From assembly GCA_020632035.1 (NCBI GenBank), contig JACKGG010000001.1, positions 152,985-216,984 of the forward strand: DNA of 64,000 bases. The letters run 5' to 3'. Under the pieces are notes generated by a model. That model saw only the letters and a program-made list of their open reading frames with translations. It had not been told where the DNA came from and did no database searches. This document shows, one piece after another, positions 23,802-64,000 of the stretch. The DNA is from Candidatus Nomurabacteria bacterium. Its GTDB lineage: Bacteria > Patescibacteriota > Minisyncoccia > Phycocordibacterales > UBA918. How positions within the stretch are numbered: the stretch's first letter is position 1; every line of letters begins with the position of its first letter. The translations under genes and the position numbers were made by a program.

Positions 23802-25238
23802 TTATCTCTTTTCGTTACTTTTTGGCTTAACGTAGACAGAAACCGTGCCGAGCAGTAAGACTCCGGCCAAAGCTAGGTATGTCCATCTATCGTCTGTATT
23901 TGTTTTTGCAGAAGCGTTGTTGGCGAGCTGTCCAGCCGGACTTATTTCTTCTCTTACCACTTCGACAACATCATCAACTACTTCACTTCCAGCCACTTCT
24001 TTGGGGCCAAGAGATGCAAAACTAAAATTAGAGTCTGGCTGAATGGCTATAGGCCTAGAGACAGAAATAGCGCTTATCTGCGGGACAGGTTTGGAAGCGG
24101 TTGAAGCGACAGTTGGACTATAGGAAAAACTGGTTGGAGCAATTGAACTAAGTAATATGCCTTCGGTATCATAGAGTGTCACCATAGAATTGGGTTTTTT
24201 ATCTAGTCTTGCTTTGGCGATAGTTATGGTTTGGTTGGGTAATATAATTGAACGGGGTGGAAATTCAAAAACACTTCCTCCACGCAATCGATAGTTAGAA
24301 ATATCAATCTCATAAGGGGAATCATTGTTTACCTGCACGTCTCCATTTTTATTTGTTGTCAGTGAAATCGCTACCGGTAAAATGGTTATTTCGTGCCTGG
24401 TGACTTGTTCCTGGCGTTTAAAGCCTGCGTAAGCGGTAACAACGTAAGTACCTGGGTAACTAAAAATATGAGTTGGTTCTTTTTGGTCTGAGGTTAATCC
24501 GTCTCCAAAGTTCCATTCGTACTGGAGTGAATCGATGAGAGTGTCACCGATTCCACTTGGTTTTACTGAAAACGAAATCGGTTGATTTACATAACCCAAA
24601 CTTTGCGCATCGACCACTAATTTTAAGCTTACATCTGGCAGGATGAGTCTGACTGTTTCCGCTGAAGAAGACTTGGTTTTTCTTGTACTTACGGTTGAGG
24701 TTTTCTTAAGGTCTTCTTGGTTTAAGGTTTCAGTGTCATCATCTTCTGATGTATCTTCTTCGACAGTCCAGTTTAAGCCTGCCCCCGGAGTTGGAGCAGC
24801 CGTCACCCACCCACTGCTTGTGTACTGAGCAGTTTCCTTAGTCGCATTATCTCCACCAATACTTTCCCAATCAGTTCCCCCGCTCACTTGGTCCACCAAA
24901 GAGCCGTCGCTCCTTGTTAATCTCAAGGTTGCCCCGGTATTTACTAGAGCTCCGGTATAAACTAAAAAGGCTGTTCCGGGTGCTGAGTCTTCACTTGTGC
25001 GCTCTAGTACGGCGTATGAATTCTGAGAAATAGTTCCCGTTAGATCAATCGATAAATTTACGCCATCACTCAGAGTCCACCCAGAGACATCTTGTGCCGA
25101 TCCATCGTTGTGTAACTCGATCCATTCATGATTGGCAGAAGCGGAAGAACCCATCCAGGCAACCTCGCTGATCGATACCGCTGCTTGGGCAGAATAAGGT
25201 AATAATAAACTAATTAGACTAAGTAAACACCACTTCAT
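23802..25238 (-). CDS. Secreted, C-terminally membrane-anchored protein with lamin-tail (LTD) and PKD domains
   Basis: Signal peptide MKWCLLSLISLLLPYSAQA; LTD-like WIELHNDGSAQDVSGWTLSDG; PKD-like YEWNFGDGLTSDQKEPTHIFSYPGTYVVTAYA; C-terminal TM helix + KPKSNEKR. Confidence 0.6.
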   Translation of the reverse strand: MKWCLLSLISLLLPYSAQAAVSISEVAWMGSSASANHEWIELHNDGSAQDVSGWTLSDGVNLSIDLTGTISQNSYAVLERTSEDSAPGTAFLVYTGALVNTGATLRLTRSDGSLVDQVSGGTDWESIGGDNATKETAQYTSSGWVTAAPTPGAGLNWTVEEDTSEDDDTETLNQEDLKKTSTVSTRKTKSSSAETVRLILPDVSLKLVVDAQSLGYVNQPISFSVKPSGIGDTLIDSLQYEWNFGDGLTSDQKEPTHIFSYPGTYVVTAYAGFKRQEQVTRHEITILPVAISLTTNKNGDVQVNNDSPYEIDISNYRLRGGSVFEFPPRSIILPNQTITIAKARLDKKPNSMVTLYDTEGILLSSIAPTSFSYSPTVASTASKPVPQISAISVSRPIAIQPDSNFSFASLGPKEVAGSEVVDDVVEVVREEISPAGQLANNASAKTNTDDRWTYLALAGVLLLGTVSVYVKPKSNEKR

Positions 25239-25241
25239 AGA

Positions 25242-27425
25242 TCAATTAAACGGTGACCGGTCACTTTCATTTTGCTTAAGCATTCGCTTTATCTCGGCTG
25301 TATTAAAAGTACCTGAGTTACTACTAGAGTTTTGCTGGTTAGAAGCAGAATCAATTTCCGGAGCAGGATGTTTCTTGCGGTGCTCAATTATAATTTTCTT
25401 AATTTCTGATTTTGAATCAGAAATTTCTTGTGTCTGTTGTGTTAAAACTTCTACTGGTTTAACTGGTTGGTTAGCGGGTAGCTGAGATTCTTTTGGTGAT
25501 TCATTTACTGCTCCTGTAGTTGGAGCTGACTTAGAAGCAGACTCCGACACCGGAGGATTAGACTCTTCGACCTGCTTCAGCACATCTGCCAGAGCTTGCT
25601 TTAGGTCAACTGTCTTAGCCGGAACATCCGCTTCTTTTGGTGATTCATTTTGGGGCCTTGGTTTAAATTCCTGTTTTTCTCTTCTGCCAGGAAAAGTCCT
25701 TTCCCCGTCATTTCTCACTAGTCTATCGCTTTGCTTCTGATAATTTTTTCCTTCAGTTTTTAGACCCCTTTCTTCGAATTTGGGTCTATTTTTATTTTCA
25801 CTATTTTCGTTTTGTCTGTTGTTTGTATCAGAATTCGGGTTCGGGTTTCTTTCAACTGGCTTAGAATAATCTGCCACCGGAACTTTCTTGTTTTGGTTGG
25901 GCTCTGATATCTTCGACAAAATATTCCGGAGGTCCTCAGGGGTTTTTTCTACCGGTTTTGGGCGAGGTGTGGACTCTTTAGGCTGGTTACCCCCTTGCCT
26001 TTGCCTCTCCGAAGATGGCCGTGTGTCATTTTGACCCTGACTCCTAGCTCCATCATAATTATTATGTGGCCTTCTATCTCCTCCTTTATTATCAAAAGAT
26101 TTTTTAGAATTTTGTTTTGGTTCTGGGGGCTGTGGAGTATGAAGCTCATCTACGAGTTTGTTAACTTCTTCACGCCTACCAGCATATAACTTTCTACTAG
26201 ATTCAATCACCATATTCCTACAAGAGACAGACGGGGGTTGTACTGGCGGTAGTGTCTGCGCCGAAAAAGGTTGTGAGCCGATACCGTCAATCATTAGTGT
26301 TAGGTAGATCTGGGCAAAGCCGAGGTTTACTAAATCTGCCGCTAAGAATTTAGGTGTAAAAACTGTTTCCAACACTTCCGCATCAAACGGACCGACTCTA
26401 AATGCGACGGTGGTTCCTACGTTTCCAAACACAGCATCTCGTACTTCTTCTTCCATTTGAGCGATGTACTGGTGAGCAATGATTAGATTGAGGTGATACT
26501 TTCTCGCCTCTGACAAAATATTGGCAAAAGTAGCGTTGGCAAAAGACTGGAATTCATCCACATAAAAATAAAAGTTCGGCATTTGCTTCATCTGCTCGAC
26601 TGGCAAGTCGGCTCTGCTCATAGCTGCCAGATAAATACGAGTGGTAAGCATCGAACCAAGCAAGTTGGCGTTGGTTTCCCCGATCAACCCTTTCGACAGG
26701 TTCATGATAACAATCTTCTTATTGTCCATCAGTTCGCGAAAATCAAAACTAGAGTGCGGCTGGCCGATGATATTTCGAATTAGAGGGTTACCGGTGAACT
26801 GGCCAATCTTATTTTGAATAGCAGGCAAGGCATCGGCTGTAAAGCGGTCGGTGTAGTTGGCAAACTCATCAACCCAGAAAGATTTTACCGCTGGATCTTG
26901 GCAGGCTTCGACTACTTTTTTTCGATAAGCCTTATCTGAAAATAATCTATTAACTGAGAGTAAGGTGCTGTCGGGATATTCGATCAAGACCAAGAGGGCG
27001 TTGGTGAGAATATATTCCATTCTGGCACTCCAGGCATCTACCCAAATTTTCTTAAAGGTGGACATGAGACCAGAGACCACCAAGTGTCGCTTGTCTGGAC
27101 CAACATCTTCCATGACATTAAAAGAAATAGGATTCTCTAGATCAAACGGAGCAAAATAAACAACATCTTTGACCCGGTGCTCGGGAACGTAATCTAGTAG
27201 AGTCTCAGCGGCCGAGCCGTGCGGATCGATAAAGGCCACTCCTTCTCCGTTCATGATGTCCTGAGCGGCCATATTCTCAAGCAAAGTAGACTTACCCATA
27301 CCGGTTTTTCCCACAATATACATGTGGCGCTGTCGGTCTTTAGCCTTGATACCAAAAGAAACCCCCTGACCCCTGGCATCAGTTTTGGCAAAAAATGTGA
27401 TCTTTTCCGGATCGAATGCTGTCAT
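25242..27425 (-). CDS. VirD4/TraG/TrwB-like (FtsK-HerA superfamily) ATPase with long disordered C-terminal tail
   Basis: Walker A IVGKTGMGKST, Walker B FYFYVDEFQSF, IIAHQYIAQM motif; about 290-aa low-complexity tail rich in N/Q/P/K/E/R. Confidence 0.5.
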   Translation of the reverse strand: MTAFDPEKITFFAKTDARGQGVSFGIKAKDRQRHMYIVGKTGMGKSTLLENMAAQDIMNGEGVAFIDPHGSAAETLLDYVPEHRVKDVVYFAPFDLENPISFNVMEDVGPDKRHLVVSGLMSTFKKIWVDAWSARMEYILTNALLVLIEYPDSTLLSVNRLFSDKAYRKKVVEACQDPAVKSFWVDEFANYTDRFTADALPAIQNKIGQFTGNPLIRNIIGQPHSSFDFRELMDNKKIVIMNLSKGLIGETNANLLGSMLTTRIYLAAMSRADLPVEQMKQMPNFYFYVDEFQSFANATFANILSEARKYHLNLIIAHQYIAQMEEEVRDAVFGNVGTTVAFRVGPFDAEVLETVFTPKFLAADLVNLGFAQIYLTLMIDGIGSQPFSAQTLPPVQPPSVSCRNMVIESSRKLYAGRREEVNKLVDELHTPQPPEPKQNSKKSFDNKGGDRRPHNNYDGARSQGQNDTRPSSERQRQGGNQPKESTPRPKPVEKTPEDLRNILSKISEPNQNKKVPVADYSKPVERNPNPNSDTNNRQNENSENKNRPKFEERGLKTEGKNYQKQSDRLVRNDGERTFPGRREKQEFKPRPQNESPKEADVPAKTVDLKQALADVLKQVEESNPPVSESASKSAPTTGAVNESPKESQLPANQPVKPVEVLTQQTQEISDSKSEIKKIIIEHRKKHPAPEIDSASNQQNSSSNSGTFNTAEIKRMLKQNESDRSPFN

Positions 27426-27443: not shown

Positions 27444-28949
27444 TTAGTGACTAAAACGATTTGCCACGTAGGATAGTAGTGTGCCTATGTCTTCAGTACG
27501 GTTTTCAGAACCAAGGAGGATAACTACTAGGGTGCGGTCTTTAGTTTGGAATTGTATTTTATGTAGCGAAATAGAAGTCTGGCCGGCAGCAATTGTCTCA
27601 CCGACCTTACCGCCAATAAAACTATCCATATCTTCTGCTCCGTTAAAATTGACCAAACCATCAAACTCTCCACCTACATATACATTAGAGAGAGTTTCAT
27701 TGGCGGTAATGTCAAAAATGAAACGTTTGTTTTTATAAATGTATTTTGTGAGGGTGTATAAATCTTCTATGGAAGAAACATTCTCAGAACTGAGACCAGA
27801 CGGATCAGCGAAATTAGTATTCATCATCCCTAGCTGCCTGGCTTTGGCGTTCATAGCTTCGAGAAATTCTGCTCGACCCACTTCCCCAGCTATGGTCTCG
27901 GCAGCTTCGTTTGAAGATTCGACCAGTAGAAGTTGAAGTAAGCTGTACACAGAAACACTACTTCGTTCAGCCAAACGAGGAATTAGCGACGTCACAAAGG
28001 TCGGTGAGATGACTCGAACTCGCCCGTCTAAGCTTAATTTCTCGGTGGCTACTACCGCTGTCATGAGTTTTACCAGTGAGGCGACCGGTAGCTGTTCTTC
28101 ATAGCCCTTTGAGGCCAAAACGGTTCCGTTGTCTATGTCGGCGACAAAATAGTGCTTAAGATCAAGCTCAGGGATTTGGGTTTCGTAGATAAATTGGTCT
28201 CGAGTTTCCTTGGTGTCTATATGGACCAATACTGGCATGTCTTTCTTCACGTGCTCAAAGAGTTTTTCAGCTGACTCGTCACTCAAGCGAATACCACCTC
28301 CAGCAAAATCTTCCGCGACCAATTCTCCTCCCGGGTAGGTTGGCCAGCCGTGTATTATATAATTTCCTTGAAAGGTGATCTGCCAAGGTAAGAAAACTTG
28401 CCCAGTAGTGGTAAATAATTTTTCGTCCTTCCTTTCTACTTTATAGAGCCCTGAAGGGACACCCCACCTAGAACCAGGGTCTCCGGTCCGCAGGATTTCT
28501 GCGCTCACCAGCAAAACGCCGTTCTCAAAAAATCGTAGTTGTTTTTTAGATATATCGGCCTCAATGAAAGTTAAACCTTCCTCAATAAAAGCGTCGCGCG
28601 TTTCTATGAACAAATTATTTTTTGATAACGAATCCTGGGGGCCGTACTCAAGTGTCGTAGCATTTTTGGTGTAGGGGTCGATTATGGTTACGGTCGGAGC
28701 TGAGGCCAGGTTGGCTTGCGAAACTACGCCGTACCCCGATGTACCAAGAATGATTAGTGCACACAACCCAAAGAAAGACAGGGCTACTCTCTTCGCGGAG
28801 CGAGTAGAGGAGCTTCGTGCATTCAATGGTGTGAAGGTATGTTTTGGGTGCCAATCTCCTTTTCGTGGAATCAAAATTCCTTTGCCATCGACTGGCTGAT
28901 CATCACTATAAGAAAAAAGCTTAACAGATGAATCTGATTTGTCTGACAT
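27444..28949 (-). CDS. Fusion: L,D-transpeptidase-like (YkuD) domain lacking catalytic Cys + D-Ala-D-Ala carboxypeptidase (peptidase S11/PBP5-like)
   Basis: N-terminal TM; YkuD-like IIHGWPT...FAGGGIRL (Gly where Cys is expected); S11 motifs ASLVKL (SxxK), ESSNEAA (SxN), GGKVGET. Confidence 0.5.
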   Translation of the reverse strand: MSDKSDSSVKLFSYSDDQPVDGKGILIPRKGDWHPKHTFTPLNARSSSTRSAKRVALSFFGLCALIILGTSGYGVVSQANLASAPTVTIIDPYTKNATTLEYGPQDSLSKNNLFIETRDAFIEEGLTFIEADISKKQLRFFENGVLLVSAEILRTGDPGSRWGVPSGLYKVERKDEKLFTTTGQVFLPWQITFQGNYIIHGWPTYPGGELVAEDFAGGGIRLSDESAEKLFEHVKKDMPVLVHIDTKETRDQFIYETQIPELDLKHYFVADIDNGTVLASKGYEEQLPVASLVKLMTAVVATEKLSLDGRVRVISPTFVTSLIPRLAERSSVSVYSLLQLLLVESSNEAAETIAGEVGRAEFLEAMNAKARQLGMMNTNFADPSGLSSENVSSIEDLYTLTKYIYKNKRFIFDITANETLSNVYVGGEFDGLVNFNGAEDMDSFIGGKVGETIAAGQTSISLHKIQFQTKDRTLVVILLGSENRTEDIGTLLSYVANRFSH

Positions 28950-29061
28950 ATTTCAATAATACCCTACATCTTAGACTAAAAAGCCATTAGCTCACACATT
29001 AGAAAAGCCCCAGGATAGGGGCTTTTGGTTTAAGTTGATAAACCTTAAACCGGATGGCTCA

Positions 29062-31230: not shown

Positions 31231-31267
31231 ACAAAAAATTAGAGGTCTACACTAACGCATAGACCTC
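31231..31267 (-). terminator. Rho-independent terminator after hypothetical gene 31318..32343
   Basis: Minus-strand hairpin gaggtcta-cactaacgca-tagacctc followed by T-run (taattttttgtt). Confidence 0.55.
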
Positions 31268-31317
31268 CAGTGCTCCTAAATAACGGATATTCTTATACCA
31301 CCACTTACATTGGATGG

Positions 31318-33146: not shown

Positions 33147-33167
33147 GACCTAGGGTAACCCTAGGTC
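33147..33167. repeat. REP-like palindrome (gacctagggtaaccctaggtc), left flank of Y1 transposase
   Basis: Perfect palindrome; second copy at 33864-33900 and third copy inside murD at 39061-39081. Confidence 0.7.
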
Positions 33168-33849
33168 AGCTTTGGTGACCTTTTAAAATATCGGTATTGT
33201 ATGCTAACCACTCAAACAATTCTTTTTTCATATCTATATGACTAGAAAAATAATCTGGGAATGGAGACGAATCTAAAACGGCTTTTTCTGGTCGATTTAA
33301 TCCTAAATGATCAGGCAAACTTGAATACTGATAAGTCGATACGAATTTATACGCAGTTTCTAAATTCTTTATCCCCCTCTCTACCCAATCTGATTGATAC
33401 AACTTAACAGGATTAAGGTGTATATAGGAATATAAATATTTTAAATATTCATCTTCTCCGGCGTGTTTAGCTTTATAATTTCCTTGGAACAAGGTGCCGG
33501 TACGCTCGTTTCTTTTATTAAAATACATTGAGTAACTTGTACATAATTTATTCATAAAAATACCTAGACCATCATCAGTATGTGGTGTGGCTATAATATG
33601 AAAATGATTAGGCATAAGACAGTATGCGCCGATAGAGACAAGTTGTTCCTTCCTATTAAATTCAAATATATTTTTACCCGACCTAGAAATATTACGATAG
33701 TTTACTGATACTGATGAATTACAAAGATATAAAAGATCAATAAATCTTTTATAATCTGCAGTATCAGTAAAGATAATTCTTCTGTCGGTACCTCTATTAT
33801 AAATATGATAAAACTCGCCAGTTGAAAAACTTATACTCCTGGTTGCCAT
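33166..33849 (-). mobile_element. HUH Y1 tyrosine transposase, IS200/RAYT-like (REP-associated)
   Basis: HuH motif CLMPNHFHIIAT and catalytic Tyr region YSYIHLNP; flanked on both sides by the same palindrome. Confidence 0.6.
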
Positions 33850-41772: not shown

Positions 41773-41773
41773 G

Positions 41774-41846
41774 TCCGCGCTCTAGGGTTCGAACCTAGGA
41801 CCTTTCGAGTATCAGTCGAATGCTCTACCAACTGAGCTAAGCGCGG
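41774..41846 (-). tRNA. tRNA-Ile (anticodon GAU)
   Basis: Minus-strand 73-nt cloverleaf: acceptor CCGCGCT/AGCGCGG, D-arm GCTC-AGTTGGTA-GAGC, anticodon loop CTGATAC, T-arm CTAGG-TTCGAAC-CCTAG, discriminator A; CCA not encoded. Confidence 0.85.
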
Positions 41847-41962: not shown

Positions 41963-42226
41963 CTACATATTGTGGATCGTGAGCAAATCCTCAAAAGTTG
42001 CTCTTGGGAAAGTTGTTTCTCTCCGGTACTTCTCTGGTGCATTTTCACACCGCACCAAGACTTCCTCTTGCTCGAAGGCAACGCACTCACCAGTCAGAGG
42101 ATCGTACCTCTCTACTGGTAGATTAACGGTGACTTCAGCTGCGGAAGGGCCTACGACATGAAACATAGACCATGAAGCGAAAGCTAGTACACCTAATGGT
42201 AACAATATTTTTTTCAACAAACTCAT
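41963..42226 (-). CDS. Small secreted protein (87 aa)
   Basis: Alternative start (TTG) with RBS aggggacaATG; signal peptide MSLLKKILLPLGVLAFASWS. Confidence 0.4.
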   Translation of the reverse strand: MSLLKKILLPLGVLAFASWSMFHVVGPSAAEVTVNLPVERYDPLTGECVAFEQEEVLVRCENAPEKYRRETTFPRATFEDLLTIHNM

Positions 42227-42367: not shown

Positions 42368-42808
42368 ATGAAAAAAACCACTGCTCTAGCCTCGCTTCTT
42401 CTGTTACCAGTAATAACTCATGCTGAATCACTTCAGACTTTTTTCACTAACTTCATACAATTTCTAAGTAACATAGTCATCCCCTTTTTACTTGGAATAG
42501 CCTTTCTTTTCTTCGTAATCAATGCCTTTAGATTCTTTATATATGGTGGTGACAACGAAGAAGATCAGACAAAGGCTAAAACTTTAGCCATCTATAGTAT
42601 TTCAGCCTTTATATTAATCATTACCTTTTGGGGAATAATTAATTTATTAGTCAGTAGCTTAGGTTTTGGTGGAGTAGATCAACCACCATCTGACTACGTG
42701 TGTCCAGATGGTTTATGTCCAGAAAATCAAGAGCCTGATTGGATTCCTCCAATAGACAACCCTTGTAATGACCCGACCAACCCAGCTTGTAATCCGGGCA
42801 GGGCTTAG
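42368..42808 (+). CDS. Secreted two-TM protein, TrbC/VirB2-like T4SS-pilin candidate with Cys/Pro-rich C-terminus
   Basis: Signal peptide MKKTTALASLLLLPVITHA, two hydrophobic helices, C-terminal CPDGLCPENQEPDWIPPIDNPCNDPTNPACNPG; followed by terminator 42820-42856. Confidence 0.3.
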   Translation: MKKTTALASLLLLPVITHAESLQTFFTNFIQFLSNIVIPFLLGIAFLFFVINAFRFFIYGGDNEEDQTKAKTLAIYSISAFILIITFWGIINLLVSSLGFGGVDQPPSDYVCPDGLCPENQEPDWIPPIDNPCNDPTNPACNPGRA

Positions 42809-42856: not shown

Positions 42857-43087
42857 TTAAAACTCTACTTCTGTTCGTAAGGGTTTATTCATAATCATAA
42901 CTCACAGCAGACTTGGAGTGTCACGTACTCTTTTGTCTTATCCTTTAGGCTTGGTCTTTCCCAAGAGTCTAATACCATTTCAGAGAATTGAGTATCATTT
43001 CTCGTTATGTGCTCAATTGAGGCACATAACACCGACCAATTAGTTATCATTGTGCTTTGTTACCAAAACACGACAACGTATCCAATT

Positions 43088-44545
<1,458 letters not shown>

Positions 44546-45351: not shown

Positions 45352-46629
45352 CTAGGCGGGCAACATTGCCTGCTCTGAACCAATTGTTTCGGACTGACGA
45401 TCTACATCATCCAATACGTTTGATCGTCGGCGCATGAAACGGTTAAGCTTCCATGCTACCCAACATGCAATGAGAATGAGAATGCCGCCTATGAGATATG
45501 TCACATTCACCTCTTCCCAGATCCAACCATAAGACTCCGCCGACGAGGTTTGCACCACTTCGGCCTGAGGTTGAGGTTGATCGAGCTTTTGCAAAGCTTG
45601 CCGTGCAGCCGCGACTTGGCTTTGACGCTGTTGCGTCTCTGCCAACTTTTCGGCCAAACGAGCACTCTCGGCTTCAGCCAAAATCGACTGCACCTCAAGC
45701 AAAATCTCATCCTTAAAGGCTTGACGCACTTCAGGAGAGAATTTGGGTGCCGCCTCAAGGGCAGCAATGGTTGTGTCATACTTCTCGAAACCATTGTCTA
45801 CCTTAGTCTGGAGCTCCGCCCACTTCTCGCCTTGCGCTTGAAGCTGAGCCTGGAAGTTTTTCAGCTGACCGAGTTGCTCGGCCAGCTTGGCGTTGTTCCC
45901 GGCAATTGCTGCCTTGACGGACGCCAAATCCTGGGATTGCTCGAGGATTATTAACTTCATAAACCCTGCTGTGCTGAGCAGTGTTGCCTGCGCAGCAGCA
46001 ACCGAGGCATCACCAGTGGCGTCGACTCCTTTTATAAAGCCTTCCAACTGGTCGAGCTCACCAGCCAGTGTTGCCCTTGCGACAGGATCGTCGCCCGCTG
46101 CTTCCGCTGCTTCGCGGATACTGGTAATACCGCGATCCGCTGAATTAAGCTGTTCAACAGCGCCCCCGACTGCTTTGGCCTTGTCAGCCGCGACTTCGGA
46201 AGATACTGCCAGCGCCGGCGACGTATTCTCCGCTGGTGCAATCGGTACCGGAAGAAGCCATTTGGTCGCGATAAACTCCTCTTTAGTTATAGTCAGTCGG
46301 AGTTCACCGTTTTCATCGAGCAAAGTCGGTGTCTCTCCCATAAATTGGGTTTCGACAAACTGTAGCATATACTTTTCCACTTCTTCAACCGACGCTGTCT
46401 GACTTAAATATCCGTTGTCCTTTGCCAGAGCGACGACCATATGACTGATTCCGTAAAAGGTCAAATTGCCATCACTGTCAATAAACCCTTCCTTTGTCTC
46501 CATGTAGGCAAACACTTCCGCTGGATCATTCCAAGTGGGTTCACCCGCGGGGTTGCCAGCTTGGGAATTGACAGTTGTCAAAAGCAACAGAACTGCCACC
46601 AGTGTACATGTGATACTTTTCATTTTCAT
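45352..46629 (-). CDS. Secreted Ala/Gln/Glu-rich coiled-coil protein with C-terminal TM anchor
   Basis: Signal peptide MKMKSITCTLVAVLLLLTTVNSQA; long alpha-helical heptad-like A/Q/E/L region; C-terminal TM LIGGILILIACWVAW + basic tail; GC-rich codon usage. Confidence 0.5.
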   Translation of the reverse strand: MKMKSITCTLVAVLLLLTTVNSQAGNPAGEPTWNDPAEVFAYMETKEGFIDSDGNLTFYGISHMVVALAKDNGYLSQTASVEEVEKYMLQFVETQFMGETPTLLDENGELRLTITKEEFIATKWLLPVPIAPAENTSPALAVSSEVAADKAKAVGGAVEQLNSADRGITSIREAAEAAGDDPVARATLAGELDQLEGFIKGVDATGDASVAAAQATLLSTAGFMKLIILEQSQDLASVKAAIAGNNAKLAEQLGQLKNFQAQLQAQGEKWAELQTKVDNGFEKYDTTIAALEAAPKFSPEVRQAFKDEILLEVQSILAEAESARLAEKLAETQQRQSQVAAARQALQKLDQPQPQAEVVQTSSAESYGWIWEEVNVTYLIGGILILIACWVAWKLNRFMRRRSNVLDDVDRQSETIGSEQAMLPA

Positions 46630-46707
46630 TGTACTCTCCTAATCTGATGTGGGTTTAAGTGGTTTACCGACGACAGCATAGCTGTCGTCGGTTCACCTCC
46701 GGCGACT

Positions 46708-47310
46708 CTAGTGCGGAACCGAGTTCGCTTCGATTGTGGATTCAGTCGCGACGTTTGTCACGATATGAGAAAAAACCGAAGTCCCTTGTCCACCACCGCA
46801 GTTTTTACACCGCGACAGGTAACCGTTACCAATCGGAGCGATCAGTCTGGTGAACTGGTCGATCAAAAAGCGAGCATCGCCAGCTTGATCCTGAGACTGG
46901 CCCACATAGGCTCTTTCTCCAATCACCATACCAACCTTATCAGTTGGCCTGATGACAACAGCGTTACTATTGAAGCCCATAAGGCCACCGTCGTGTTCCC
47001 ACCATACTGCAACTGACTGAATCGCTGGATTCCATTTGGCGCAGGTTTGGTTGGTCCAGCAAACCGCCTCTCCGGTGAGATAGACCATATAGTTCCAGGT
47101 ATTCACTGCCAAAACTTTCTTGATATGTTCTTCCTTTGCCGTCGCTTGATCAGCTGCTTTCTTGGCGTTGAACTCCTCGAAGTCCGCTTCGGTCAATTTG
47201 ACCTGTCTTGCCGGAGTTGAAGGAGAGGTTATTGAACACCCCGCCAAGATGGCGCAGGTGCAGATGAGCACGGCCAGAAGCCGCGATATTGAAGTTTTCA
47301 TGGTTTTCAC
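46708..47310 (-). CDS. Lipoprotein, hypothetical (200 aa)
   Basis: Lipobox-type signal MKTMKTSISRLLAVLICTCAILAGC; CKNCGGGQG motif; GC-rich. Confidence 0.45.
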   Translation of the reverse strand: MKTMKTSISRLLAVLICTCAILAGCSITSPSTPARQVKLTEADFEEFNAKKAADQATAKEEHIKKVLAVNTWNYMVYLTGEAVCWTNQTCAKWNPAIQSVAVWWEHDGGLMGFNSNAVVIRPTDKVGMVIGERAYVGQSQDQAGDARFLIDQFTRLIAPIGNGYLSRCKNCGGGQGTSVFSHIVTNVATESTIEANSVPH

Positions 47311-47316
47311 CCCTAG

Positions 47317-48054
47317 CTAGTTGAGTTTGACGTTGGTTGGTATGGTCCAGGAATTACTCTTTCCTTTCCCAAGAATATAATCATCGGCGTTGCCGCCGAT
47401 CGTTAATCCGAGCTTTGACTGTCCGTCACAATTACAACAACCGGGAACCCCGGCAATACGCAACGGCTTATTTTTTAACATCTCTTCTGACGAAGTCACC
47501 TGAGTATCCTCGGGTGGTTCGTCTAGAACTAGCACAGGCAGCGGAGGTTCTTTCGGTACTGGTAATACCGGTGTATGAACCGACCAGTTGCTACATGTAT
47601 CCAGGAACAGTACCGCCAATCCATCCTTGTTTCCAGTCGGGCAAGACCAACTTGCCCGCGCTGGGTCATCAGGAAGAATGTCAGTACCGAAATCGATGTA
47701 AAGGTTGGCCGCTTTGTGCGGTTGCCCTGGGCAAGACTGAGTGGTTGTTATCCTCTCACCCTCCTGAACAAAGTGACGAGTACACTGACCCGCTATTTTG
47801 CTGTAAACCCCTATCATCCATTCTGCAAAAGATAGGTTTGGCAGGCGGATTTTTTCTCTTTCCGCCATGATCAGCGGATAAGCTCCCTCGGAGGTCCCTT
47901 TGTATGGGCAAACTCCGACCTTTTTATAAGGTCGAAACTCATCTCCTTTTGGAGCATTATCGTCACCCGTCTCGGCCGAAGCAGAGACCGACAACAACAA
48001 CGCCACAGCTGTTGCCAAAAACAACTTCTGCGCTTTCGCGCTTGCTTTTTTCAT
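47317..48054 (-). CDS. Secreted Cys-containing hypothetical protein (245 aa)
   Basis: Signal peptide MKKASAKAQKLFLATAVALLLSVSASA; GVPGCCNCDGQS motif; GC-rich. Confidence 0.45.
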   Translation of the reverse strand: MKKASAKAQKLFLATAVALLLSVSASAETGDDNAPKGDEFRPYKKVGVCPYKGTSEGAYPLIMAEREKIRLPNLSFAEWMIGVYSKIAGQCTRHFVQEGERITTTQSCPGQPHKAANLYIDFGTDILPDDPARASWSCPTGNKDGLAVLFLDTCSNWSVHTPVLPVPKEPPLPVLVLDEPPEDTQVTSSEEMLKNKPLRIAGVPGCCNCDGQSKLGLTIGGNADDYILGKGKSNSWTIPTNVKLN

Positions 48055-48203
48055 GTTTACTTACCTCTCGTATTTAACTATCAAAATTCCAAGAACCCCT
48101 TACCAGTACACTTTTTATAAAGTGTCAAGGTATAGTCCATAAAAGGATTTATATCATACTTTTGTAAAAAAATCAACCCCGTCATGTTATGAAGATGAAT
48201 ATA

Positions 48204-48242
48204 AAAAACTCCGCGTACCCTTGATGAAGACGGGTAGCGGAG
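48204..48242 (-). terminator. Rho-independent terminator after secreted protein gene 48342..
   Basis: Minus strand ctccgctacccgtcttcatcaagggtacgcggag followed by tttttt. Confidence 0.6.
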
Positions 48243-48341
48243 CTGTATGGGCTCTGCCGCGAAGCAGAGCGATGAACTTAATGTGACAGTCTGACCACAA
48301 CGGCCTGAACTGTCACACGACCTTGGTTACCTGGCGATAGG

Positions 48342-48935
48342 TTAGTGCGACCCACTTCCCTTTTTGCCGCCAAAAGTGGTGACGAAGCCACCACCTTTTA
48401 TACCGGACCAAACACCGGTATTGCCATCCACCCAGAAAGTTTCTCCGGGTTTGAGATGGGCATCGGTTGTCAGAGACTCGATGCCGATGGCATGAGTCTC
48501 AGACCCCATCATCGATAACGATTTGACGTTATCTCCACAGCCCAGGCAACCTTCAGCCTGGTCTTTGGTGACCGTGAAGTCGCCAACCATCTGGCTCACA
48601 CTCTCGTCGAGAGTATAAGCATTGATGAGCGTATCATGGCTGGAAGTCAAATCCCCCCAGCTGCGACCCGAGCCATCGAGTTCCAGCTTCATTGCTCCGG
48701 CAATAGTGTCACCCAAGCTCGGGTGGCGGTCGGGATGATGCGGATTCTCGGGCGGTTGGTGACCACCACAATTTCCATTCTTGCATGGCGACTCGTACCA
48801 GTCATTTGGCGACTGGTTAGGACTGAGCACCAGACTATCCATGACCAGGTTGTCACCACCAGCGAATGCCGGCGGTGACAACCAGGCGGACAGTGCGAGT
48901 GTGATTGCGATTGTTCCGGCTATTTTGCAAATGCG
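48342..48935 (-). CDS. Secreted hypothetical protein
   Basis: ORF track 48342..49037; internal start MRICKIAGTIAITLALSAWLSPPAFA gives a signal peptide; PCKNGNCGGHQ and GCLGCGDN motifs; GC-rich. Confidence 0.4.
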   Translation of the reverse strand, partial: RICKIAGTIAITLALSAWLSPPAFAGGDNLVMDSLVLSPNQSPNDWYESPCKNGNCGGHQPPENPHHPDRHPSLGDTIAGAMKLELDGSGRSWGDLTSSHDTLINAYTLDESVSQMVGDFTVTKDQAEGCLGCGDNVKSLSMMGSETHAIGIESLTTDAHLKPGETFWVDGNTGVWSGIKGGGFVTTFGGKKGSGSH

Positions 48936-49316
48936 CATGCTTTTCTCCATCCTCACGTAGTGAGGTAAAAAGTTGGTATTGCTGCGACGTGCAGCGGCTT
49001 TTGTATCCCAAGAGCGAGATAACGATCTTTGTCTCAAGACGAGACAGATCGTGGATTGGGGACATTTTGATTGAGCCGAAGCTCATCTTTTGTCCCCTCT
49101 CCCGGGCCGGCACGTCTTAAGTAAAGACTTGAGTAAACTAGCACAATATAGAAATTTGTCAACAGCTAAATGTTTACACTTGCCCTTTCTTGCGGGGAAC
49201 TTTATTTAACTCAAAACACCCGAAAGTTCCTTGAAACAAGTTCGCCCAACAAGATTTAAAACTATTTAAACTTATTAGAAATAAAGCTATTTGCAGGTCT
49301 GTCTGATTGCAGTACA

Positions 49317-60192: not shown

Positions 60193-61611
60193 CTATTGAA
60201 GTGGCGCAAAATTAGTCTTAGTTTTAGCTATTATGTCTATCTTGGTTGGCCCCACTTCGCAAAGTGAAGAAGTTATTTGGGTATAGATACGGCTTAACTC
60301 AGTCCCGGTCGGAGCGAAGTAGGCGTTGTCAGTGTACGATGCGATATTTCTGATGAACTGTTGATCAACATTATTCCCCAATCCGATGGAATAAATTTCA
60401 ATTCCACTTTCGTTTAGTGATTTGGATAATTCTTCGGCTTCTTTAACTACATCTGCATTTCCGGAAATTGTCGGTAGTCCGTCAGTCAATAGTACTAATA
60501 CTCGCCTGGCATTCTCGTTGTGCCGGTCGGATCCAAGTTCTGCTTGAGCTAATTTAAGAGCATCTACTGTATTGGTGAAGCCAGTTTCTTCGCCTGGATC
60601 GATTTTTAACTTTCTTGTAGTGTCGGCTATTGTATTATGCTGGTTGGTTAAGCCGGTGACTAAGTTTGCTTTAGAATCAAAGGTAACAACAGAAACTTGA
60701 TCATTATTCCGTAAATTATCAATAAATGTGCCGGCTGCTTCAAGGGCTTTGGTGATTGGTTGCGGAGGATTAGATCCATCGTTATTCATACTCCCAGATA
60801 AGTCAATCGCAACTGTAACATCAGTTGGTATGACACAATTCTTGATAGTTTTAGCAATTGGATTCGGCCAGGTAAAGACAATTCCTTCAGTTGACCTCGG
60901 TTCGATGTTGTCTATAAAGGTCTGTGAGGCAGTGACCGGGTCGCCTTTTTCGTTAAAGACTGTGGCCACTACTTCGATGTTATCAGCTGGAAGTAGGGTG
61001 GTGTTCTCTATATCTACATATAATTGAGGCCGACTGTCAGCACTGATCAGGTTGATATCAGTTGAGCGGAACTGGTCTCGGCCGACGGTTGACGGTAGCC
61101 AGAGTTCGGATTGTTCTAATATAACTTTAGTTTCAGTAACCGGCTCTGCGCCATCGACAAATACTCTCCCCTCAAAGATTGGGTAGATACTGTCGGGAGG
61201 AAGCACGGTTTGACCCTCCCTTTCTCCTACCATCTCTCCATTACTAAATAACTGGAAGGTGTAGTTTAGAACTGGAGCGCCAGCCTCTTTATTGGCATTC
61301 TCTACATAAGCAACGACGTTGTATTGACCTTTGGTTATTTCAAAACTTTCTGTCCAGACTACTCTTGGTGGTACTACGTCGGCCTGACAAATCTGAACAC
61401 AACCTCCCCCACAATCAACCCCAGTCTCATCACCATTGGCTGTCCGATCAAAACAATTCGGTGGTACGTAGAAATTAGTAAAAAATATCAAAACACCCAC
61501 TACTCCAAGTGACAGAAAAAGCCCAACTAGGTATTGAACACGTCGCCAAATTGCCCACGGACGAATAAAGCTCATGTAATTATTGTACCAGATTGAGTCA
61601 CCAAAATTCAT
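60193..61611 (-). CDS. Membrane-anchored von Willebrand factor type A (vWA) domain protein
   Basis: N-terminal TM; MIDAS motif VAIDLSGSMNNDGS... VLLTDGLPT. Confidence 0.65.
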   Translation of the reverse strand: MNFGDSIWYNNYMSFIRPWAIWRRVQYLVGLFLSLGVVGVLIFFTNFYVPPNCFDRTANGDETGVDCGGGCVQICQADVVPPRVVWTESFEITKGQYNVVAYVENANKEAGAPVLNYTFQLFSNGEMVGEREGQTVLPPDSIYPIFEGRVFVDGAEPVTETKVILEQSELWLPSTVGRDQFRSTDINLISADSRPQLYVDIENTTLLPADNIEVVATVFNEKGDPVTASQTFIDNIEPRSTEGIVFTWPNPIAKTIKNCVIPTDVTVAIDLSGSMNNDGSNPPQPITKALEAAGTFIDNLRNNDQVSVVTFDSKANLVTGLTNQHNTIADTTRKLKIDPGEETGFTNTVDALKLAQAELGSDRHNENARRVLVLLTDGLPTISGNADVVKEAEELSKSLNESGIEIYSIGLGNNVDQQFIRNIASYTDNAYFAPTGTELSRIYTQITSSLCEVGPTKIDIIAKTKTNFAPLQ

Positions 61612-61714: not shown

Positions 61715-62386
61715 CTATATCTCAAAATCTTCTTTTGCGCCTGAATTTTCAACAAACTCCTGGTATTCTTCAAAAGACCCAAAAGTGCTAGTAATAACCT
61801 CCCCTACTAACAATTTTTTCCATCTGTTGCTGAGATAATCTTGGTAACTAGACCACGGATAAGAAATTGTATTATTTTTCCACCGTCTCAGTTCATTAGG
61901 ATTGCGATGTATATACGCTGACAGATAGGTCAATTGTTCATCACTTTCCACTAACTTTACTTTATAAGCACCTTGAAACACATGTCCTGACTTCTCATAC
62001 CGCTTATTGAAATATTGGGAATAGGCGTTGCTTAGTTTATGCATATACCTAGACAAGCCATCATCACTTAAAGTCCTCACTGTTAAATGAAAGTGGTTTG
62101 GCATTATGCAAAAATTTATTATCTCGACAAACCTCTCACTTACAATATTATCTAGATCTTTATTTTTAACCAAAAAGTCCTCTTTCTTTAGGTAATTTTT
62201 AACAAAACGATTTGTTTGAGGTAGGGAAACGGGAGACTGCATATGCATAGCAAGGAATAGAAAACGAACATAATCAGAACGGTCATAAAAAAGCGTCTGC
62301 TTTAAATTTCCTCTATTGTATACGTGGTAATAATTATCCTCAATAATTTTCAAAGATCTCATATCAACAGCATACCAGTATAGCAA
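61715..62386 (-). mobile_element. HUH Y1 tyrosine transposase, IS200/RAYT-like (paralog of 33166-33849)
   Basis: HuH motif CIMPNHFHLTVRT, Tyr region SAYIHRNP; YYHVYNRGN N-terminus like the other copy; flanked by identical 23-bp palindromes. Confidence 0.6.
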
Positions 62387-63121: not shown

Positions 63122-63233
63122 AAGTTGGCGCCTACCTACTCTTCCCCTTGCGGAGTACCATCGGTGGTAGAAGACTTTACTGCCGTGTTCGGAATGAGAA
63201 CGGGTGTACCCCTTCCCCCAAAGCACCAACTTG
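63122..63233 (-). rRNA. rrf: 5S ribosomal RNA
   Basis: Minus strand AAGTTGGTGC...CACCCGTTCTCATTCCGAACACGGCAG...GATGGTACTCC...GAGTAGGTAGGCGCCAACTT; helix I pairing of ends; matches bacterial 5S consensus (CCGAACACGG, GATGGTA). Confidence 0.8.
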
Positions 63234-63415
63234 AAAGGCTCGATTTTGATTTTAAAAAACTTTTAGTTGTGTACCCTTGAAATTGTCTCCCAGACAATTT
63301 CAATCCCTCAGCACCAACTTTAAGAATTTAATTCGTTATTTAACTTGCTTCAATCGCGTGAAATGGTGATATGTTGTCGTGAGTCCTTATACTCTGATTA
63401 GTAACATCTCGTAAA

Positions 63416-63524
63416 TGGTAGGGGTAGCAGGAATTGAACCCACCGCCTTTGCTTGATCGCACTCGTAGCGAGCTCAGGCCCTTCGCGAGAACCAGTATTC
63501 TTTGTCCATCCAAGTGGTACCCCT
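63416..63524 (-). ncRNA. tRNA-like structured element (acceptor-like stem + T-arm-like GGTTCAATTCC + encoded CCA) in 23S-5S spacer, flanked by 17-bp inverted repeats
   Basis: Minus strand AGGGGTA...GTGGGTTCAATTCCTGCTACCCCTACCA; inverted repeats caatcgcgtgaaatggt at 63351-63368 and 63562-63578; could not be folded into a canonical cloverleaf. Confidence 0.25.
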
Positions 63525-63789
63525 TGAATAAACTACTGACACTCTATACCCCCGTGAAATTACCATTTCACGCGATTGAAAATTCACATATTCAAGAGAC
63601 TCTTCGAACTCGACCTTTCAGCCGAGCATTAGGTAACACTTCACTCATCAAATTACACAGTTCAAAATCTTACAAATTGCCTGCATTTCTAGGCGCGCCA
63701 GAAAGATTTTTGGAACGGGGCTTGTGCCCAGTGACAAAAATCTTTTGCCAGCGCAACACCGAAATGCTGCAATTTTAAGGTTTTGATGT

Positions 63790-64000
<211 letters not shown>

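Follow-up and report, generated by a model that had tools for sequence, protein, structure and literature searches.

A coupling protein-like ATPase without a membrane anchor is paired with a lamin-tail surface protein in Paceibacteria

A 64,000-nucleotide stretch of a Candidatus Nomurabacteria genome (contig JACKGG010000001.1, positions 152,985 to 216,984 of the forward strand; hereafter the window, in whose own numbering all coordinates are given) carries, side by side on the minus strand, the genes for a soluble ATPase related to the coupling proteins (T4CPs) of type IV secretion systems (T4SSs) and for a surface-anchored protein built of lamin-tail (LTD) and PKD domains. The two genes are a deeply conserved, tightly spaced pair. 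The ATPase is a T4CP paralogue that has lost the N-terminal anchor and gained a basic, disordered tail with three amphipathic-helix motifs and a terminal ERSPF sequence, and in several lineages a ComEA-type helix-hairpin-helix (HhH) stands in place of the outermost domain of the surface protein. Because of this replacement, we tentatively favor the possibility that the pair is a fixed chromosomal two-gene module of Paceibacteria for DNA crossing the envelope, a function that we infer, with uptake the most probable direction and the surface protein most likely acting as an extracellular DNA receptor. Neither gene is a chance open reading frame (ORF), since database searches returned more than 8000 strong homologues for the ATPase (word-indexed search) and 629 for the LTD protein.

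Attention had been drawn to this region by a sequence-only reading, which named three ORFs, those of the ATPase, the surface protein, and a candidate pilin, as possible parts of a minimal secretion or DNA transfer apparatus. All three were found at the coordinates and on the strands it gave, and the Walker A, Walker B, and AHQ motifs that it reported are present in the translation.

The ATPase and its tail

The ATPase (727 amino acids [aa]; 25242..27425, minus strand, like every feature of the pair given below) is the product of the longest ORF of the window. Its core, aa 1 to 437 (26115..27425), comprises a nucleotide-binding domain (NBD) with an inserted all-alpha domain. The core carries Walker A (GKTGMGKS, aa 39 to 46, 27288..27311), Walker B (FYFYVDEF, aa 285 to 292, 26550..26573), and an AHQ motif (aa 317 to 319, 26469..26477) whose conserved Q aligns with the LQSTSQ motif of TrwB, together with a predicted AAD-like all-alpha insertion (aa ~113 to 234, 26724..27089). 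Residues G39, G42, G44, K45, D290, Q319, and Q323 are invariant, and E291 nearly so, in an alignment (A3) of 89 sequences of diverse homologues. The T4CP family is defined by its NBD (PMC7434980), and the defining features, Walker A, Walker B, and a downstream RK...Q, are all found here; the all-alpha insertion of T4CPs is seen in the predicted model only, as the helical region at aa 113 to 234.

Three Pfam models match above their curated cutoffs, namely TrwB_AAD_bind (PF10412, 34.5 bits), DUF87 (30.2 bits), and TraG-D_C (PF12696, 25.3 bits), and the NCBIfam VirD4-like CD1115 model aligns with aa 28 to 343. When a family profile was compared with PDB sequences, TrwB (9.6e-8) and DotL (8.7e-6) were the first matches. 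An AlphaFold (AF2) model of the core, made with the 89 diverse sequences, reached a pLDDT of 93.5 and a pTM of 0.91; in a Foldseek comparison with the PDB its top matches were Cag-beta and TrwB (TM 0.60 to 0.62 over ~420 columns), HerA and DotL ranked below them at TM 0.50 to 0.53, and 346 residues of the model superpose on TrwB. A first AlphaFold run, on the full-length protein with 67 close homologues, had a pLDDT of 53.9 and was used for tail disorder only. Since the PDB profile and Foldseek both rank coupling proteins first, the ATPase belongs to the VirD4/VirB4 lineage, closest by sequence to the coupling proteins and without their usual membrane anchor. The family matches and the TrwB and Cag-beta folds thus bear out the earlier description of a T4SS coupling-type ATPase.

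Most T4CPs, although not all, have an N-terminal transmembrane domain; here it is missing. The maximum 19-residue Kyte-Doolittle hydropathy is 1.55 over the whole protein, with no transmembrane segment, and an upstream extension of the gene is precluded by an upstream gene only 18 nt away and by a start residue shared among homologues. Other ATPase families were compared as well. The HAS-barrel of HerA is absent, since the stretch ahead of Walker A amounts to only ~30 residues, a single beta-hairpin, and HerA ranks under the T4SS ATPases in both profile and fold comparisons, the DUF87 match being marginal (30 bits). The protein has neither the alpha/beta motor (PF01580) and KOPS-reading gamma domain of FtsK/SpoIIIE nor the layout of VirB4, in which an N-terminal domain of ~400 aa precedes a C-terminal ATPase domain within ~800 aa. 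The sequence-only reading had named membership of another family, such as a septal FtsK paralogue, as part of what would overturn it; the ATPase stays T4CP-like, and the septal FtsK paralogue is rejected at the family level and kept as a functional analogy only.

VirD4, TrwB of R388, TraD of F, Cag-beta, and DotL share with this ATPase the RecA-like NBD, Walker A and B, the RK...Q...Q signature, and the all-alpha insertion. Apart from the absence of an N-terminal transmembrane segment, the window ATPase differs from them in being encoded by a chromosomal core gene (70 to 90% identity across the class) rather than by a mobile element, in having no adjacent relaxase or VirB4, and in having an extracellular LTD or HhH protein as its partner. 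The usual genetic association of T4CPs with virB4, a relaxase, or both is lacking within the scanned window and the homologue neighborhoods. The Pfam scan of the window covered 47 ORFs (about 11 further ORFs of at least 120 aa, mostly at 9.2 to 19 kb, lay outside it), and none of the 47 encodes VirB4, VirB6, VirB8, or a relaxase; VirB4, VirB6, and relaxase are likewise absent from the annotated neighborhoods of the ATPase homologues examined.

At an E value of 1e-3 or below, the ATPase family has 21,697 cluster representatives. Across 80 Paceibacteria genome loci the core is 71 to 90% identical, which is comparable to MetK in the same loci (80 to 86%) and far above the neighboring genes; because of this, the ATPase behaves as a core cellular gene, unlike a gene of a mobile element. 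The nearest relatives are metagenome-assembled genomes (MAGs) of Kaiserbacteria and Nomurabacteria, and the identical ATPase sequence is also present in MAG GCA_020428885.1. Quinonero-Coronel et al. (2025) counted 5,713 VirD4-type homologues in 2,918 of 3,035 Patescibacteria genomes (96%), found only 148 of the 5,713 near virB4, and raised exaptation as a possibility (PMC12102498). The window ATPase is evidently one of these orphan T4CP homologues.

Two architectures were seen among the 150 best ATPase-family representatives. In type A, to which the window protein belongs, the core is N-terminal and is followed by the tail. In type B, a core 45 to 55% identical to that of the window ATPase is preceded by an N-terminal transmembrane helix and the ~400-aa DUF8128 (PF26449), which is either fused (P0179, L166:1761-4631) or encoded by a separate, overlapping upstream gene (L145:6697-9734); the split DUF8128 gene product is 29% identical to P0179 over 414 aa (E 2e-56). 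Both types are chromosomal and have disordered tails. Unlike the window ATPase, type B adjoins a gene for a Sigma70_r4/HARE-HTH protein, ends in ...GTLKPGEKLEL (...PGEKxEL), and lies in loci without an LTD partner. Two paralogues per genome would fit the published figure of 5,713 homologues in 2,918 genomes (PMC12102498).

The tail (aa 438 to 727, 290 aa; 25245..26114) is rich in S, K, N, P, E, and Q, has a pI of 9.5 and a net charge of +9, and varies from 57 to 415 aa across homologues. Its pLDDT in the full-length run is below 50, save for three short helices, the only ones predicted in it, and these coincide with three conserved motifs, whose column counts were taken over 121 sequences. M1, K-T/S-P-D/E-D-L-R-x-I/V-L-x-K-M/I/L (aa 494 to 506, 25908..25946; helix at aa 496 to 506), has D498 in 113, L499 in 120, R500 in 106, and L503 in all 121. 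For M2, D-L-K-x-A-L-A-x-V/A-L (aa 606 to 619, 25569..25610; helix at aa 608 to 619), the counts are 114 for L608, 102 for K609, 111 for A611, 120 for L612, and 104 for L616. M3, (L/I)-D-x3-(I/V)-(K/R)-(K/R)-M-L-R-x4-E-R-(S/T)-P-F-x-COOH (aa 707 to 726, 25248..25307; helix at aa 709 to 716), keeps L716 in 113, R723 in 109, P725 in 120, and F726 in 119. More distant type A homologues end in ...E-V-P-E-D-x-L-K/R-x-h-L instead of ERSPF. The earlier description of a long low-complexity tail therefore holds as to its length of 290 aa and its disorder, but the tail is not featureless, with three conserved islands and a conserved C terminus.

Since conserved helical islands lie within disordered sequence, the tail looks like a flexible tether that would bear docking peptides. 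The C-terminal extension of TraD, which binds TraM, follows the same design principle, with a conserved short terminal peptide, whereas the T4CP C-terminal domains that have been described are acidic and this tail is basic (PMC7434980). When all six-frame ORFs of the window were searched for a shared docking motif, the tail motif was found in the ATPase only.

The surface protein and the exchange of its tip

The ATPase stop codon and the start codon of the surface protein gene are 3 nt apart (TGA tct ATG), and the second gene is probably translationally coupled to the first. The surface protein (478 aa; 23802..25238) begins with a signal-like segment, followed by the distal lamin-tail domain LTD1 (aa 20 to 155, 24774..25181; Pfam LTD aa 16 to 119), which is its best-conserved part. 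A PKD domain (aa ~205 to 287, 24378..24626), matched by Pfam PKD and PKD_4 at 35 to 41 bits, carries the motif WNFGDG...YPGTY, which is invariant or nearly so, and is followed by a second, weaker LTD-like domain (aa ~288 to 366, 24141..24377), which corresponds to a second Pfam LTD stretch, is weak in homologues, and was tracked with a local hidden Markov model (HMM). The LTD family match scores 62.4 bits against a cutoff of 34.3 and falls in two stretches. A transmembrane anchor identified by hydropathy (aa 452 to 470, 23829..23885) and an 8-aa basic cytoplasmic stub complete the protein; the anchor is conserved, and the stub is variable. The description of the next gene as encoding an LTD plus PKD envelope protein was thus accurate.

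An LTD-PKD homologue lies directly downstream of the ATPase in 51 of 80 genome loci (tblastn; loci picked by ATPase similarity), and a second set of 80 metagenome loci, retrieved with a 50%-identical ATPase homologue as the query, showed the same pattern. In most loci the gap between the two genes is 1 to 9 nt or the genes overlap. Domain HMMs were then scored over these 160 loci plus the window. The slot downstream of the ATPase holds LTD-PKD-LTD in 78 loci, HhH-PKD-LTD in 12, and another Ig-like tip on a PKD-LTD stalk in 3; it holds none of these in 40, and 28 loci were too short to tell. The slot is therefore filled in 93 of 133 assessable loci, or in 93 of 125 if one removes 8 empty loci in which the ATPase has a type B-like ...PGEKxEL tail (the upstream DUF8128 gene was verified in L145 only). 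A group of loci without an LTD partner, L134 to L158, was considered as a counterexample and rejected: their ATPases have paralogue-type tails, with a split DUF8128 gene upstream in the one locus checked.

The pairing holds over greater distances and from the other direction. All three of three orthologues at ~45% core identity keep the order MurD-MurC-RsmI-x-DUF4015-ATPase-LTD/PKD-epimerase-GT4, with the ATPase and LTD genes overlapping in two. The LTD protein family (the 629 matches, of a uniform 440 to 510 aa, all from Parcubacteria) was also sampled independently of the ATPase search, and 4 of 4 members had the ATPase directly upstream. The YkuD/S11, epimerase, and CofD genes of the same neighborhood come and go far more freely than the ATPase-LTD junction.

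From the PKD domain through the second LTD to the anchor, the 12 HhH variants (L041, L061, L063, L064, L066, L068, L072, L099, L108, L114, L120, and L128) can be aligned with the window protein, but their N-terminal domain is a helix-hairpin-helix. In L061, L063, and L066, this domain matches Pfam HHH_3 (PF12836) at 66 to 71 bits against a cutoff of 27 and NCBIfam TIGR00426, "ComEA HhH repeat region," at 58 to 75 bits (cutoff, 53.1); the remaining nine were picked up solely by a local HMM built from these three. No HhH was found elsewhere in the first 80 loci or in the window. On a neighbor-joining tree of ATPase cores, the HhH variants are interspersed with LTD variants at five or more separate positions, and because they are scattered in this way, the exchange of LTD for HhH is one that was repeated or was spread by recombination. 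The window protein itself has no HhH and falls outside the ComEA family; by analogy it may work like ComEA without being a member.

DNA uptake weighed against other explanations

In the DNA uptake reading that we tentatively favor, the signal peptide would export the surface protein, the C-terminal helix would hold it on the cell surface, and the PKD-LTD stalk would present the distal lamin-tail domain outward. The surface protein would then capture extracellular DNA, presumably through binding by the LTD. A channel encoded elsewhere, possibly ComEC acting with type IV pili, would conduct the DNA, and in the cytoplasm the ATPase, putatively a hexamer docked through its tail motifs, would pull the strand or hand it over.

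The exchange of the tip is what ties this scheme to DNA. The idea that LTDs are associated with extracellular nucleic acid handling, raised in the sequence-only reading, gains support from the 12 syntenic loci in which the distal LTD gives way to a ComEA-type HhH. In secreted DNases, LTD and duplicate HhH are alternative accessory domains described as "analogous in function" (PMC4486849), and the nuclease ExeM degrades DNA more slowly in vitro without its LTD (PMC6085458). ExeM, Xds, and the halophile DNases are extracellular DNA-handling proteins with a distal LTD, in which LTD and duplicate HhH exclude each other; unlike them, the window protein has no nuclease domain and consists of LTD, PKD, and LTD only. 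Furthermore, Meheust et al. reported ComEC in 86% of genomes of the candidate phyla radiation (CPR) and ComEA in 31% and suggested an alternative DNA-binding mechanism (PMC6744442). The HhH is common to ComEA and the 12 partner loci (3 library-confirmed, 9 found by the local HMM), with an LTD in its place in the window protein. A surface DNA binder combined with a cytoplasmic ATPase resembles the logic of the comE/comF systems, that is, ComEA plus ComFA in Firmicutes. The present pair differs from ComEA/ComFA in having a C-terminal helix anchor and a PKD-LTD stalk, a motor of the T4CP family instead of a DEAD-box helicase, and no comEC nearby.

Several observations weigh against DNA uptake. 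The known T4CPs act in export, not in import. LTD1 is acidic (pI ~4.05, net charge ~-11), which is atypical for a simple DNA-binding surface; the three HhH variants for which charge was computed are also acidic (pI 4.2 to 4.4). The Ig-like tips in three loci, which are beta-rich, have no Pfam match, and sit on the same PKD-LTD-anchor stalk (L125:9658-11013, L131:9646-11202, and L136:3771-5123), suggest that the tip may be no more than an adhesin module that varies. Nor does the work on ExeM settle what its LTD does (PMC6085458). Since the cytoplasmic stub is short and unconserved, a conserved direct contact between the ATPase and the surface protein cannot exist. The partner gene is missing in about one-quarter of type A loci, and the ATPase is near-universal. 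No comEC, dprA, comF, or pilus gene adjoins the pair in any locus examined, and a search of all 161 flanks for ComEC-like large polytopic proteins gave six candidates, which were of Wzy, PMT, GtrA, or flippase type or FtsW. Lastly, the 15- to 20-kb block around the ATPase is collinear, so that adjacency of the ATPase and LTD genes alone is weak evidence.

A bolder form of the uptake reading would make the pair a new CPR device for DNA import: LTD-PKD-LTD would be the alternative binder of Meheust et al. in the ~70% of CPR genomes that have ComEC without ComEA, and the anchor-less T4CP paralogue would be an import-direction motor docked on the uptake channel and feeding nucleotide scavenging. 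We regard this fuller proposal as doubtful.

Alternatively, the ATPase may be the coupling protein of a Patescibacteria T4SS that acts in trans, an explanation we consider unlikely. Its tail would recruit substrates and dock on VirB4/VirB6, the LTD protein would be an accessory adhesin, the pilus of that machine would be assembled from the window pilin, and VirB4, TrsD, VirB3, VirB6, and pilins would be encoded elsewhere in the genome, usually near dnaA. Fold and sequence family are those of a T4CP, the window does contain a real T4SS_pilin, T4CPs without a transmembrane domain exist, and C-terminal extensions are known docking devices, as in TraD-TraM (PMC7434980). In addition, VirB4 occurs in 2,417 of 3,035 Patescibacteria genomes, with t4cp genes often far from virB4 (PMC12102498). 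However, T4CP homologues are found in ~500 more genomes than VirB4, and in S. epibionticum the T4CP homologue is dispensable although the T4SS is essential (PMC12102498); in the S. epibionticum T4SS, Wang et al. could recognize no coupling protein. The basic tail and the extreme sequence conservation are both atypical of T4CPs, VirB4, VirB6, and relaxase are missing both from the scanned ORFs and from the vicinity of the gene in the loci examined, and the HhH exchange in the partner would be left unexplained. As for the minimal T4SS that the sequence-only reading had envisaged within the window, it is contradicted by the lack of any other component among the scanned ORFs and by an ATPase that is an anchor-less chromosomal core gene.

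Another explanation takes the ATPase for a DNA translocase in chromosome segregation or septum clearance, similar to SftA and recruited to the divisome by its tail, with the LTD gene a mere neighbor. The surroundings are in keeping with this role: the gene lies in a dcw-like block with MurD, MurC, RsmI, a peptidoglycan transpeptidase/carboxypeptidase, and DUF4015, and in the paralogous type B locus L145 FtsW is three genes away. The ATPase is, moreover, near-universal, highly conserved, and soluble, and the non-essentiality reported for the S. epibionticum homologue would suit an SftA-like protein (PMC12102498). We nevertheless judge it improbable; at the family level the protein is not an FtsK.

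We also give little credence to the absence of any functional link, in which synteny and operon packing would account for the pairing, the ATPase would energize some other envelope process, and the surface protein would be a modular adhesin. The whole block is indeed collinear across large evolutionary distances, ~25% of loci lack the partner and have glycan synthesis genes directly after the ATPase, some tips are Ig-like domains that do not bind DNA, and LTD1 is acidic. Against this, the ATPase-LTD junction is steadier than YkuD/S11, epimerase, and CofD, with its gaps of 1 to 9 nt or overlaps, and the LTD family was never found apart from the ATPase in the reciprocal sampling of four members. 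We know of no ATPase of the T4CP family that acts on glycans. Finally, a HerA/mad8-like role in antiphage defense is very improbable, as PADLOC gave weak family-level matches only and no partner defense genes, and the gene is near-universal, 70 to 90% identical, and set in a fixed housekeeping block and not in a variable island.

Near-universal VirD4-type homologues in Patescibacteria, rarely near virB4 and possibly exapted, have been published, as have VirB2-like pilins (PMC12102498, PMC12857230, and PMC10633639). The split between anchor-less tailed and DUF8128 forms, the tail motifs, the position in a cell wall block, and the LTD/ComEA-HhH partner appear to be new, as they were not found in the searchable literature; the study that reported the orphan homologues describes neither the two architectures, the tail motifs, the cell wall cluster context, nor the LTD/HhH partner, and the word "lamin" has no occurrence in it (PMC12102498).

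Patescibacteria have no nucleotide synthesis, and scavenged DNA is believed to sustain them. This group presents two loose ends, namely that most genomes have ComEC without a recognizable ComEA (PMC6744442) and that VirD4-like ATPases are nearly universal, are not linked to T4SSs, and have no assigned role (PMC12102498). Because the tip of the surface protein alternates between a lamin-tail domain and the ComEA HhH, the pair joins both in one hypothesis. If the DNA uptake reading were true, a conjugation motor would have been recruited for a core cellular function, and a biochemical role would be assigned to bacterial lamin-tail domains. The three tail motifs and the C-terminal peptide, an assayable LTD, and the DUF8128 paralogue as a contrast offer experimental handles.

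The gene block, the pilin, and the wider window

The window holds a 16S rRNA gene, a tRNA-Ile gene, a 5S rRNA gene, and the end of a 23S rRNA gene, and Pfam identified Mur ligases, FtsW, SecDF, MetK, RsmI, CofD, and many glycosyltransferase and polysaccharide genes. The rRNA/tRNA set and this housekeeping content mark the window as part of the chromosome of a Paceibacteria/Parcubacteria-type organism. The neighbors of the ATPase are always housekeeping genes (MurD, MurC, RsmI, DUF4015, epimerase, and GT4), and the collinear 15- to 20-kb block that they form is a cell wall and surface glycan cluster.

Upstream of the ATPase gene by 18 nt and in the same direction, a gene for a membrane-anchored, 501-aa fusion of YkuD (L,D-transpeptidase) and Peptidase_S11 (D,D-carboxypeptidase), both assigned by Pfam, lies at 27444..28949 on the minus strand. 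It precedes the ATPase in 37 of the 80 close loci, and the two genes are probably one transcription unit. Two strong terminator-like hairpins are found at 29003-29026 (AAAAGCCCC-loop-GGGGCTTTT), between a 75-aa ORF and the YkuD/S11 gene, and at 31240-31269 (13-bp stem plus T-run), upstream of a gene for a small membrane protein; both may be transcription unit or operon boundaries of the block. A promoter and terminator scan of the window was uninformative, with counts near the level of shuffled sequence. Two genes for IS200-like Y1 transposases (PF01797) are present in the window, at 33166-33849 (227 aa) and 61715-62386 (223 aa). One of them lies between MetK and RsmI, within a block that is conserved in other respects, and a homologue of the first (33166-33849) occurs in few related loci only.

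The third ORF singled out by the sequence-only reading, at 42368..42808 on the plus strand, was correctly recognized as encoding a VirB2-like pilin. The 146-aa protein belongs to T4SS_pilin (PF18895, 40.0 bits against a cutoff of 26.6), scores 26.3 bits with the NCBIfam Mbov_0395 pilin-like model, which is under that model's cutoff, and has a signal-like N terminus followed by hydrophobic segments at aa 26 to 61 and 70 to 103. Eight related loci conserve the two-helix core; what follows the second helix is a hypervariable tail of ~15 to more than 300 aa that often starts with CPDY. The gene is antisense to the flanking 16S rRNA gene (43085-44544, minus strand) and tRNA-Ile gene (41773-41846, minus strand), in the spacer that separates them, and the same order, with the pilin on the opposite strand, is found in at least L020, L023, L028, and L041. 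T4SS pilins have been reported in 1,948 Patescibacteria assemblies (PMC12102498). The window pilin shares PF18895 and the signal peptide plus two helices with the VirB2/TrbC-like T4SS_pilin arrays of Patescibacteria; unlike them, it is a single gene, set in the 16S/tRNA-Ile spacer and not near virB4, and no T4SS gene is found among the scanned window ORFs.

The proposal that this pilin belongs to the same apparatus as the ATPase is not supported. The pilin is 14.9 kb from the ATPase start (some 15 kb), with Mur ligases, MetK, RsmI, and other housekeeping genes between, and it recurs near the ATPase in relatives because the position of the rRNA locus is conserved; connected with the ATPase-surface protein pair by shared synteny alone, it is not counted as part of the module. 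An 87-aa ORF beside the pilin (41963-42226) is without homologues in all loci, matches no family, and is a doubtful gene.

The rRNA genes of the window are unlinked and lie on the minus strand in an unusual order. The 3' end of the 23S rRNA gene and the 5S rRNA gene (63123-64000) come first, and ~18.6 kb of protein-coding genes separate the 5S from the 16S rRNA and tRNA-Ile genes. Within the window, a region at 45352-49037 stands out by its G+C content of 0.46 to 0.50, compared with ~0.41 in the rest. It carries genes for four proteins that are secreted or resemble lipoproteins; three are rich in Cys, and the fourth is a coiled-coil protein anchored at its C terminus. Significant Pfam matches are lacking for all four, and the region may be a foreign or fast-evolving island of surface proteins. 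A 472-aa protein with a C-terminal von Willebrand factor A domain is encoded at 60193-61611, adjoining FtsW and an IS200-like gene.

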